Source: a virus | Lineage: Duplodnaviria > Caudoviricetes | IMG/VR virus record: IMGVR_UViG_3300028805_000075 | Location: 1 to 64,000 of that record | Strand: one strand, 5' to 3' | Length of the DNA: 64,000 nt | Part shown: positions 1,187 to 1,348 of the stretch, one piece after another | How the letters are laid out: each line of letters begins with the position of its first letter | Position numbering within the stretch: the first letter of the stretch is position 1 | Program-made: the position numbers and the translations under genes | The notes under the pieces: generated by a model | The model's input: only the letters and a program-made list of their open reading frames with translations | The model's database searches: none | What the model was told of the DNA's origin: nothing

Positions 1187-1348
1187 TGGTGCCGGAAGAG
1201 GGAATCGGACCCCCAACCTGACGCTTACTGGACCCAAATGTTGGAATCAAACCAACTCTTCCGAGGCTGTGAACGAACCATCGGTCCCAGTGTGCGATCA
1301 TTACACTAATTTGAGAAGGCGCCTGCTCTACCGTTGAGCCATTCCGGC
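1187..1348 (-). tRNA. tRNA-Thr(UGU) interrupted by an 87-nt insertion at anticodon position 34/35
   Basis: 5' half GCCGGAATGGCTCAACGGTAGAGCAGGCGCCTT (1348-1316) plus 3' half GTAAGCGTCAGGTTGGGGGTCCGATTCCCTCTTCCGGCACCA (1228-1187) join into a 75-nt cloverleaf with loop CTTGTAA. Confidence 0.85.
1229..1315 (-). ncRNA. nested tRNA-like element inside tRNA-Thr
   Basis: Acceptor CTCAAAT/ATTTGGG, U73, CCA; D-arm GTGT/GCAC; T-arm GTTGG-TTTGATT-CCAAC; anticodon stem CTGGG/CTCGG with an enlarged ~20-nt loop. Confidence 0.75.

Follow-up and report, generated by a model that had tools for sequence, protein, structure and literature searches.

A tRNA-shaped insert splits the anticodon of the only tRNA-Thr gene of an uncultured phage and may be removed as a protein-dependent intron

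The sole tRNA-Thr gene of an uncultured phage with a 121-kb genome (IMG/VR record IMGVR_UViG_3300028805_000075) has its anticodon split by an insert of 87 nucleotides (nt) that is itself shaped like a tRNA. The gene lies within the first 64 kb of this record of 121,389 base pairs (bp), and that stretch is referred to hereafter as the window. On balance, we favour the view that the interrupted gene is functional and that the insert is a protein-dependent, tRNA-shaped intron, which would be released by an RNase P cut at its 5′ end and a nuclease cut after its terminal CCA, with a ligase sealing the exons.

The interrupted tRNA-Thr(UGU) gene occupies 1187..1348 on the minus strand, between tRNA-Glu and the next open reading frame (ORF). 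It measures 162 nt, or 75 nt without the insert, and its CCA is encoded at 1189..1187. When the whole window was searched with the Rfam tRNA model (RF00005), the outer gene was matched at 1348..1190 over model positions 1–71 (47.2 bits, E 6e-7), in an alignment that skips about 90 nt in the anticodon loop. The gene escapes ARAGORN in its default mode; when introns are permitted, the program recovers a tRNA of 75 nt whose intron of 87 nt lies within 1187..1348, but it places the intron one base off and calls the product Arg(UCU). After exact excision of 1315..1229, the same program returns a tRNA-Thr(tgt) of 75 nt. The 5′ exon (1316..1348, minus strand; tRNA nt 1–34) contains the acceptor strand GCCGGAA, the D arm, the anticodon-stem strand GGCGC and C32, U33 and U34, and the 3′ exon (1187..1228, minus strand) contains G35, U36, A37 and A38, the strand GCGUC, the variable loop, the T arm, UUCCGGC, A73 and CCA. 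The insert stands between nt 34 and 35 of the outer tRNA, inside the anticodon loop, and its removal restores a loop of 7 nt, C-U-U/G-U-A-A (the slash marks the junction), with U33, the anticodon UGU and a purine at position 37. A preliminary description of this DNA, made from its letters alone, had stated that removal of 1229–1315 leaves a 75-nt tRNA-Thr with the loop CUU/GUAA, and this is confirmed by Rfam and by ARAGORN after excision.

The insert (1229..1315, minus strand) runs for 87 nt from its own acceptor nt 1 through CCA. Searched alone, it scores 30.6 bits against the Rfam tRNA model (gathering score 29; E 3e-5), and the alignment takes in all 71 model positions except the anticodon loop, where 20 nt stand instead. 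Its acceptor 5′ strand, CUCAAAU (1309..1315, minus strand), pairs with AUUUGGG (1239..1233) in seven of seven positions; the acceptor 3′ strand, U73 and CCA are read directly from the sequence at 1229..1239 on the minus strand. The T arm, GUUGG-UUUGAUU-CCAAC (1240..1256, minus strand), was assigned by covariance-model alignment and by comparison with the homologous insert of a related contig, L003, and U8-A9 and a 4-bp D stem are also present. The score thus upholds the earlier account of the insert as a cloverleaf with an acceptor stem, U73, CCA, D and T arms and an enlarged loop. In place of an anticodon arm there is a central arm (1261..1290, minus strand), which is drawn as a 5-bp stem with a 20-nt loop in the covariance-model alignment and as a 4+4-bp stem with a 7-nt loop, CGUUCAC, in the minimum-energy fold; the latter loop has G33 and so lacks U33. 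The L003 homologue is 72 nt long (33.1 bits against the Rfam tRNA model) and is called a tRNA by ARAGORN when presented alone. Its central arm has a 4-bp stem and a 5-nt loop, so that this arm is not conserved. Since the central arm differs between the window and L003, and since no 5-bp stem closes a 7-nt loop with U33, the insert is tRNA-shaped but is not a decoding tRNA.

Minimum-free-energy folding of the insert was no better than that of shuffled sequences (z -0.26), as is usual for tRNAs, and was not used as support; the case for the insert rests instead on the covariance model and on comparison. No ORF is present inside the insert. No target-site duplication or direct repeat is found at its junctions, in agreement with the first reading of the locus. 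No ribozyme or group I (RF00028) match was obtained in Rfam at E up to 10 for either the locus or the insert. A group I intron was also rejected because the insert has only 87 nt and lacks a P3–P8 core, and group I cores usually exceed 200 nt; the earlier argument that the insert is too short for such an intron therefore stands. Bulge-helix-bulge introns have two 3-nt bulges separated by a 4-bp helix, and here the sites lie on either side of an acceptor stem of 7 bp that carries a UCCA tail; the endonuclease family PF01974 is absent from the phage. In Y RNAs of the YrlA type, the RNA's own 5′ and 3′ ends form the Ro-binding helix and the acceptor end of the tRNA-like domain is closed; this candidate was discarded as well, since the acceptor end of the insert is free and carries CCA, its flanks are tRNA exons and no Rfam Y RNA matches. 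No further copies of the insert were found within the window or the genome, and it is not a repeated element here. An exact search of IMG/VR with the 3′ part of the insert gave no match, and on comparison of the region with deposited phages only the neighbouring ordinary tRNAs matched.

The choice between Thr and the Arg(UCU) call of ARAGORN depends on a shift of one base at the junction. The Arg reading is contradicted by uninterrupted relatives, by the Thr identity pairs and by the presence of a separate tRNA-Arg(UCU) at 6264–6338. In L003 and L004 the homologous gene has the loop UUU/GUAA, and the spliced form from L003 shares about 88% identity with an uninterrupted tRNA-Thr(UGU) of L051, whose loop is UUUGUAA. 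For the window gene, the predicted spliced junction joins GGCGCCUU to GUAAGCGUC; here the match to uninterrupted alleles concerns the anticodon-arm string only, and this 20-nt string spanning the junction, GGCGCCTT followed by GTAAGCGTCAGG, is contiguous in 14 IMG/VR viral contigs, in every one of them (14/14) inside an ordinary tRNA-Thr(UGU). The pairs G1-C72 and C2-G71, the classical identity pairs of ThrRS by the E. coli rules, are invariant in all six tRNA-Thr sequences compared. A comparison with 1669 distinct phage tRNA sequences, made with the anticodon loop masked, places Thr genes closest: they account for five of the top eight for the window gene and for all six listed for L003. By these four lines (the L051 and L003 alleles, the identity pairs, the masked neighbours and the junction string of the 14 contigs) the junction CUU/GUAA is correctly read as Thr(UGU).

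The contig Ga0255059_10003499 (L248), from another dataset, carries window positions 1–3274 at 99.9% identity over these 3274 nt, with three mismatches and an identical nested gene, which excludes a chimeric assembly, a concern raised when the locus was first described. Only the oddity of the structure would favour the view that two tRNA-like reads were wrongly joined; the three single-nucleotide differences of the independent contig lie elsewhere, the architecture recurs in at least three further datasets (L003, L004 and L245) and in unrelated phages, and we give an assembly artefact practically no weight. The gene order of the window, Ser–Glu–interrupted Thr, is found again in the related contigs L003 and L004 and in the metagenome contigs L244–L246, relatives that were linked through a neighbouring phosphoesterase gene (74% protein identity) and whose insert measures 72 nt. 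The comparison with related phages proposed in the preliminary description has recovered both interrupted alleles and uninterrupted ones (L051 for tRNA-Thr and, for other tRNAs, L106). A further relative, L002, linked through a Ro60-like protein described below, ends inside the tRNA cluster and is uninformative.

About one quarter of the exon positions differ between the window and L003, with all outer helix pairs kept. The compensatory double changes in the outer tRNA number two in the acceptor stem and four in the anticodon stem, accompanied by several pair changes in the T stem, and across five interrupted and one uninterrupted tRNA-Thr genes 20 of 21 outer pairs are kept. The inserts diverge more than the exons and show double changes of their own, four in the acceptor stem, two in the T stem and one in the D stem. 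Judged from these substitutions, both the outer tRNA and the insert appear to be kept by selection. A selfish insertion that killed the gene, leaving a decaying pseudogene in a phage that uses host tRNA-Thr, would be in keeping with the identical exons seen in interrupted and uninterrupted alleles of other phages, which indicate recent insertions. We consider this outcome quite improbable, as all outer pairs of the window and L003 have survived the exon divergence, with compensatory double changes at six of them, the outer pairs are likewise kept in three other diverged tRNA-Thr genes that are interrupted, and the gene is the only tRNA-Thr in a set tuned to the codon use of the phage.

Nested tRNA genes were sought across IMG/VR with an architecture pattern consisting of a T loop, 11 nt, CCA, 14–20 nt and a second T loop. 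Candidate inserts were cut out from their first base to the CCA, and ARAGORN was then run without introns. A canonical tRNA was restored in at least 17 distinct nested cases among the fetched loci, of which three to four are doubtful (the doubtful cases being L140, L146, L150 and L221); many matches of two loose architecture patterns proved to be ordinary tandem tRNAs or tRNA fragments. Among the matches listed, the restored tRNAs are Thr(UGU), Gly(UCC), Gln(UUG), Ile(UAU), Pro(UGG), Leu(UAA), Arg(ACG) and a CUA suppressor, and in most cases the isotype given by the restored anticodon matches the tRNA body. Insert lengths run from 39 to 85 nt in these cases and reach 129 nt in a metagenome contig. 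Common to all the inserts found are a 7-bp acceptor stem, a T arm, N73 and CCA, abutting both exons exactly; the D and central arms are dispensable, and the shortest inserts consist of the acceptor stem, T arm, N73 and CCA only. The outer genes of L241 and L243 have no encoded CCA and their inserts do, so that the CCA is apparently required of the insert itself.

Insertion points in this class extend from after nt 32 to after nt 37. The emphasis that the preliminary description placed on the wobble position is therefore incidental, 34/35 being just the site used in this tRNA-Thr. The same spread of junctions, and the retention of the insert with compensatory changes, also count against its suggestion that the locus is the fossil of an RNA-level ligation into a tRNA cleaved by a nuclease between nt 34 and 35. 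In a related phage, L106, uninterrupted Gln and Gly genes are identical to the spliced forms over their first 50 nt, anticodon loop included; exact removal of the inserts would recreate these uninterrupted alleles.

In a separate scan of metagenomes, whose pattern fixed nothing but the 3′ end of the insert and the Thr 3′ exon, 10 loci were recovered. In nine of the ten, a tRNA-Thr 5′ half ending in YUU stands directly against nt 1 of the insert; the remaining one, L247, is a false match to ordinary tandem tRNAs or tRNA fragments. Those nine Thr loci hold five unrelated-looking insert types, of 71, 72, 85, 87 and 129 nt, all at the site YUU/GUAA, and the 129-nt type, from L241, has no match in deposited phages. 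We conclude that tRNA-shaped introns in phage tRNA genes form a class that is widespread and barely described, and that the insert most likely is, or once was, a mobile element and persists through removal at the RNA level. Two inserts of the wider set, at L150:2913-2987 (minus strand, about 75 nt) and L243:130-200 (minus strand, 71 nt), look like near-complete tRNAs with a loop of the CUA amber-suppressor type, and some inserts may be working tRNAs that are released from within another tRNA. A tRNA-Ile(UAU) in L003 and L004 (L003:9067-9158 and L004:7231-7322) measures 92 nt, about 15 nt over the usual length, and scores 58 bits against the Rfam tRNA model.

The nested RNA might also remain unspliced, with the composite RNA or the products of RNase P as the final forms. 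The outer tRNA would then be a scaffold and the insert or chimera a decoy or partner, for host nucleases or for the Ro60-like protein of the phage, and no tRNA-Thr would be made. That Ro60-like protein, a DUF2828/vWA protein, the lack of a decoding loop in the insert and an RNA repair set that suggests conflict over tRNA cleavage are all compatible with such a role. A scaffold would, on the other hand, need neither an exact 7-nt loop with U33, UGU and A37 nor the pairs G1-C72 and C2-G71, which are seen with all five insert types; the uninterrupted alleles equal the excision product; and the D and central arms of the inserts vary freely, which makes a specific protein partner unlikely. We hold an unspliced end state to be unlikely, and for the nuclease decoy, as proposed in the preliminary description, nothing specific was found in support.

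The phage genes around the tRNA-Thr bear on whether it could be spliced and whether its product is needed. The ends of the record overlap by about 168 bp (1–168 and 121222–121389), and L248 reads across them, from which it follows that the genome is circularly permuted or terminally redundant and that its two tRNA blocks belong to one operon region. This minus-strand operon holds 11 ordinary tRNAs at 1481–7212 and six more at 119420–120268, beyond the record ends, and CCA is encoded in all 17 of these ordinary tRNA genes. The interrupted gene is the only tRNA-Thr among the 18 phage tRNAs, ACA is used at 21 per 1000 codons and the repertoire consists mostly of U34 tRNAs for codons ending in A (NNA). 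Being the sole tRNA-Thr, with this ACA usage and a good fit to the U34-dominated repertoire, the gene has a product, tRNA-Thr(UGU), that these data suggest matters to the phage.

An RNA ligase of 417 amino acids, with an N-terminal OB domain and a PF09414 nucleotidyltransferase domain, is encoded at 113391–114644 of the genome (minus strand); among solved structures, the Rnl5 ligase of Naegleria gruberi comes closest to it (5COT, E 6e-23). A second protein, here called Pnk-HD, is encoded at 110901–111812 of the genome (minus strand; 303 amino acids) and combines a P-loop domain of the polynucleotide-kinase type, for which Clostridium thermocellum Pnkp (4GP7) is the best solved match, with an HD phosphohydrolase domain. 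The two genes lie 1.6 kb apart and about 8 kb from the tRNA cluster across the record ends, on the same strand. In the HD-Pnk enzymes of Bacteroidota, the order of the domains is the reverse of that in the phage protein. No RtcB, Rnl1, CCA-adding enzyme, EndA or RNase Z-like family was found in the phage genome. Given that no such nuclease is encoded, the cutting enzymes would have to be those of the host, and with RtcB missing, an Rnl-type ligase is more apt than RtcB for a resealing assay.

Among ten records with nested tRNAs, an ATP-dependent RNA ligase scores above the Pfam cut-off in eight, one has a weak match and one (72% complete) has none, and RtcB is found in none of the ten; among 21 other large records, which were not screened genome-wide for nested tRNAs, eight have the ligase and three have RtcB.

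Directly adjoining the tRNA operon is the gene for the Ro60-like protein (8287–9795, minus strand; 502 amino acids), which has DUF2828 and DUF7788/vWA regions, is annotated in PHROG as 'RNA-binding protein' and shows 71% identity to its counterpart in a related contig. Going by their domains, this protein, the ligase and Pnk-HD would make up a sizeable kit for RNA repair and quality control. Inside the operon itself lies a gene for a calcineurin-type phosphoesterase (1720–2313, minus strand; PF00149, PHROG 547), which has 74% identity to proteins encoded beside the same tRNAs in L003 and L004. Calcineurin-type phosphoesterase domains heal 2′,3′-cyclic phosphate ends in bacterial Pnkp, and by this analogy the operon enzyme may be a member of the RNA repair set.

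The preliminary description had raised, as one of its options, the excision of the intron by tRNA-processing enzymes and its religation. Of the readings considered, this gives the best fit to the RNase P-substrate features of the insert, the conserved outer tRNA and the phage ligase and healing enzyme, while splicing itself is still inferred. A coaxial stack of the acceptor and T arms with N73-CCA constitutes the minimal substrate of bacterial RNase P. The features kept by the inserts, namely this stack, N73, CCA and a first nucleotide directly after the 5′ exon, are those by which RNase P chooses its site, and it is on this ground that the enzyme is implicated. In the mechanism that we propose, folding of the operon transcript would give the insert an acceptor/T-arm stack of its own, with U73-CCA, and host RNase P would cut between outer U34 and insert C1, a predicted site between 1316 and 1315 (minus strand), leaving U34 with a 3′-OH. 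A second endonuclease would cut directly after the insert CCA, predicted to fall between 1229 (insert A76) and 1228 (outer G35; minus strand), and free G35. Base pairing in the outer acceptor, D, anticodon and T helices would hold the two halves of tRNA-Thr together, and the phage Rnl5-type ligase would seal the nick in the anticodon loop, with Pnk-HD healing the termini should the second cut produce a cyclic phosphate and a 5′-OH. The product would be the phage's only tRNA for ACA, and the released 87-nt tRNA-like RNA would be either a by-product or an RNA with a function of its own.

Several points weigh against this mechanism. Its weak link is the precise second cut after CCA: no known bacterial enzyme is established to make such a cut behind an internal CCA, and precise endonucleolytic cleavage after CCA is not known outside Thermotoga RNase Z and, in vitro, RNase BN of E. 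coli. The 3′ ends of precursors with an encoded CCA are as a rule matured by exonucleases, and these could not leave the 3′ exon intact; the phage encodes no RNase Z-like or EndA-like nuclease. Ligases of the Rnl5 type, as represented by the Naegleria enzyme, are known for sealing nicks in duplexes, not in anticodon loops. The association of ligase genes with nested tRNAs is statistically weak and is confounded by shared ancestry and by an incompletely screened comparison, and amounts to a hint only. In addition, related inserts might have entered the window and L003 phages in separate events; the case for selection on the outer gene while it was interrupted would then be weaker.

Some of these points would be met if the intron were spliced by another route, through a dedicated endonuclease of the phage or host or through RNA-catalysed transesterification, with no role for RNase P or the enzymes of tRNA 3′ ends. 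No obvious candidate enzyme exists for the cut after CCA, many phage ORFs beside the tRNA cluster have no family match, and Pnk-HD would be needed only for 2′,3′-cyclic phosphate and 5′-OH ends, which RNase P does not make. What the unrelated inserts hold invariant, however, is the acceptor stem, T arm, N73 and CCA, that is, the elements by which tRNA ends are recognised; moreover, inserts of 39–49 nt are too small for a catalytic core, no ribozyme family is matched at E up to 10 and no EndA is present in the phage. Such a route appears improbable to us. Excision by RNase P and a 3′ nuclease, followed by phage ligation, is retained as the favoured reading of the locus. Its generalisation, that bacteria and phages possess a third, purely protein-dependent pathway of tRNA splicing in which end-maturation enzymes excise mobile tRNA-shaped introns and phage heal-and-seal enzymes reseal the exons, and for which the present gene would serve as a natural substrate, is put forward more tentatively, as a proposition that we would neither assert nor set aside.

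Two further RNA-like features flank the interrupted gene. Directly upstream, an AT-rich tRNA-like element at 1360–1431 (minus strand) has a GUA (Tyr-type) loop and a sub-threshold score of 23.2 bits against the Rfam tRNA model; the corresponding spacer in L003 has no counterpart. Directly downstream, about 100 nt can be aligned between the window (1085–1186, minus strand) and L003:6986-7090. This stretch contains two T-arm-like hairpins, GGAAG-UUCGAUU-CUUC and the invariant GUUCGACUC, together with conserved GACGGUC and CGGGC blocks; it has no Rfam match and folds no better than shuffled sequences, and it could be a degenerate tRNA or another small RNA.

The genome also shows signs of stop-codon recoding. 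When TAG is read through, ORFs of at least 150 amino acids rise from a total of 18.7k to 35.2k codons and the longest ORF doubles, and 58 long frames contain 314 in-frame TAGs, or 11 per 1000 codons. A CUA suppressor tRNA is encoded at 7136–7212, and under code 11 several enzymes, the helicase and NrdD among them, cover their profiles incompletely. Very probably, TAG serves as a sense codon throughout the genome, for example in the stretches 25585–26652 and 44163–45581.

If the proposed mechanism is true, it would represent a new splicing logic, in which an intron disguised as a tRNA is excised by RNase P and a 3′ tRNase. The RNA ligases and kinase-phosphatases of phages would gain a routine job beyond the repair of anticodon-nuclease damage, and the supply of tRNA-Thr would depend on the phage ligase. 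Standard tRNA finders miss or mislabel such genes (here giving Arg for Thr, or no call), which biases phage tRNA repertoires and analyses of codon supply. The locus offers a compact test case, comprising a 162-nt gene that is the single nested tRNA of a 121-kb genome, a diverged homologue from which compensatory mutations could be designed, and a ligase and healing enzyme of the phage's own.

The tRNA introns known so far are self-splicing ribozymes in bacteria and organelles, or bulge-helix-bulge introns with a dedicated endonuclease in archaea and eukaryotes. The first kind is exemplified by the group I intron of cyanobacterial tRNA-Leu(UAA), which stands between nt 34 and 35. The phage insert resembles it in its place in the anticodon loop, also at 34/35, and in the sporadic occurrence typical of mobile introns, but has 87 nt, no P1–P9 core and a tRNA fold; as it folds as a tRNA and not as a ribozyme, any removal must depend on proteins. 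With the archaeal and eukaryal introns that are cut by EndA or Sen and joined by RtcB or Trl1, the proposal shares an endonuclease step, a ligase step and halves held together by the mature tRNA domain. It differs in having no bulge-helix-bulge, with the sites instead at the ends of an acceptor stem with a 4-nt UCCA tail. Moreover, EndA/Sen introns lie mostly at 37/38, whereas the phage class is variable within the loop, and the phage has neither EndA nor RtcB.

Signals shaped like tRNAs and cut by RNase P are known from mascRNA at the 3′ end of MALAT1, from mitochondrial tRNA punctuation and from minihelix substrates. In these, as proposed here, a non-decoding tRNA-shaped module recruits the enzymes of tRNA end processing to defined cuts; they serve to end or separate RNAs, however, and none lies inside another tRNA or has its flanks re-joined. 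The heal-and-seal part of the scheme has its counterpart in phage T4, whose Pnkp and Rnl1 repair the anticodon-loop breaks made by PrrC. Here, too, a phage encodes such a pair, a kinase-phosphoesterase and an ATP-dependent RNA ligase 1.6 kb apart; unlike in T4, the ligase is Rnl5-like with an N-terminal OB domain and the phosphoesterase is of the HD and not the HAD type. By analogy with T4, we infer that the phage pair may act in intron removal.

In the papers searched, no mechanistic study of nested or tRNA-like introns involving RNase P and a ligase was found, nor any demonstration of RNA-level removal for a member of the class. The closest precedents are the 'enigmatic' introns in tRNAs of the Lak megaphages, which include an intron in tRNA-Thr(TGT) that 'may encode a tRNA' and for which intron-less alleles exist (Devoto et al. 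2019, Nat Microbiol, PMC6784885; preprint 10.1101/356790). The possibility that a tRNA intron encodes a tRNA is raised again in a jumbo-phage survey of 2026 (PMC13037316), and neither report proposes or tests a mechanism. The Lak introns are like the present insert in being short, non-ribozyme inserts in the anticodon loop of phage tRNAs, with alleles that have or lack the intron and with TAG recoding in the phage, and the Lak tRNA-Thr intron as predicted by software is likewise one base off (PMC6784885). According to Table S6 of that work as read here, the Lak introns have an AT-rich 5′ leader of about 26–30 nt, end at or one base past the discriminator and carry no CCA (PMC6784885). In the window insert, by contrast, no leader precedes nt 1, CCA forms the 3′ end and both exons adjoin directly; the Lak phages have genomes of 540 kb, against 121 kb here, and no sequence similarity to them was seen. 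The phrase 'new intron type' in the preliminary description thus needs qualifying, since phage tRNA introns that may encode a tRNA had already been remarked upon (PMC6784885, PMC13037316). What holds of it is the distinctness of the variant: the CCA-ended, exactly abutting insert differs from the Lak introns as a variant within a kind that had been noticed before.

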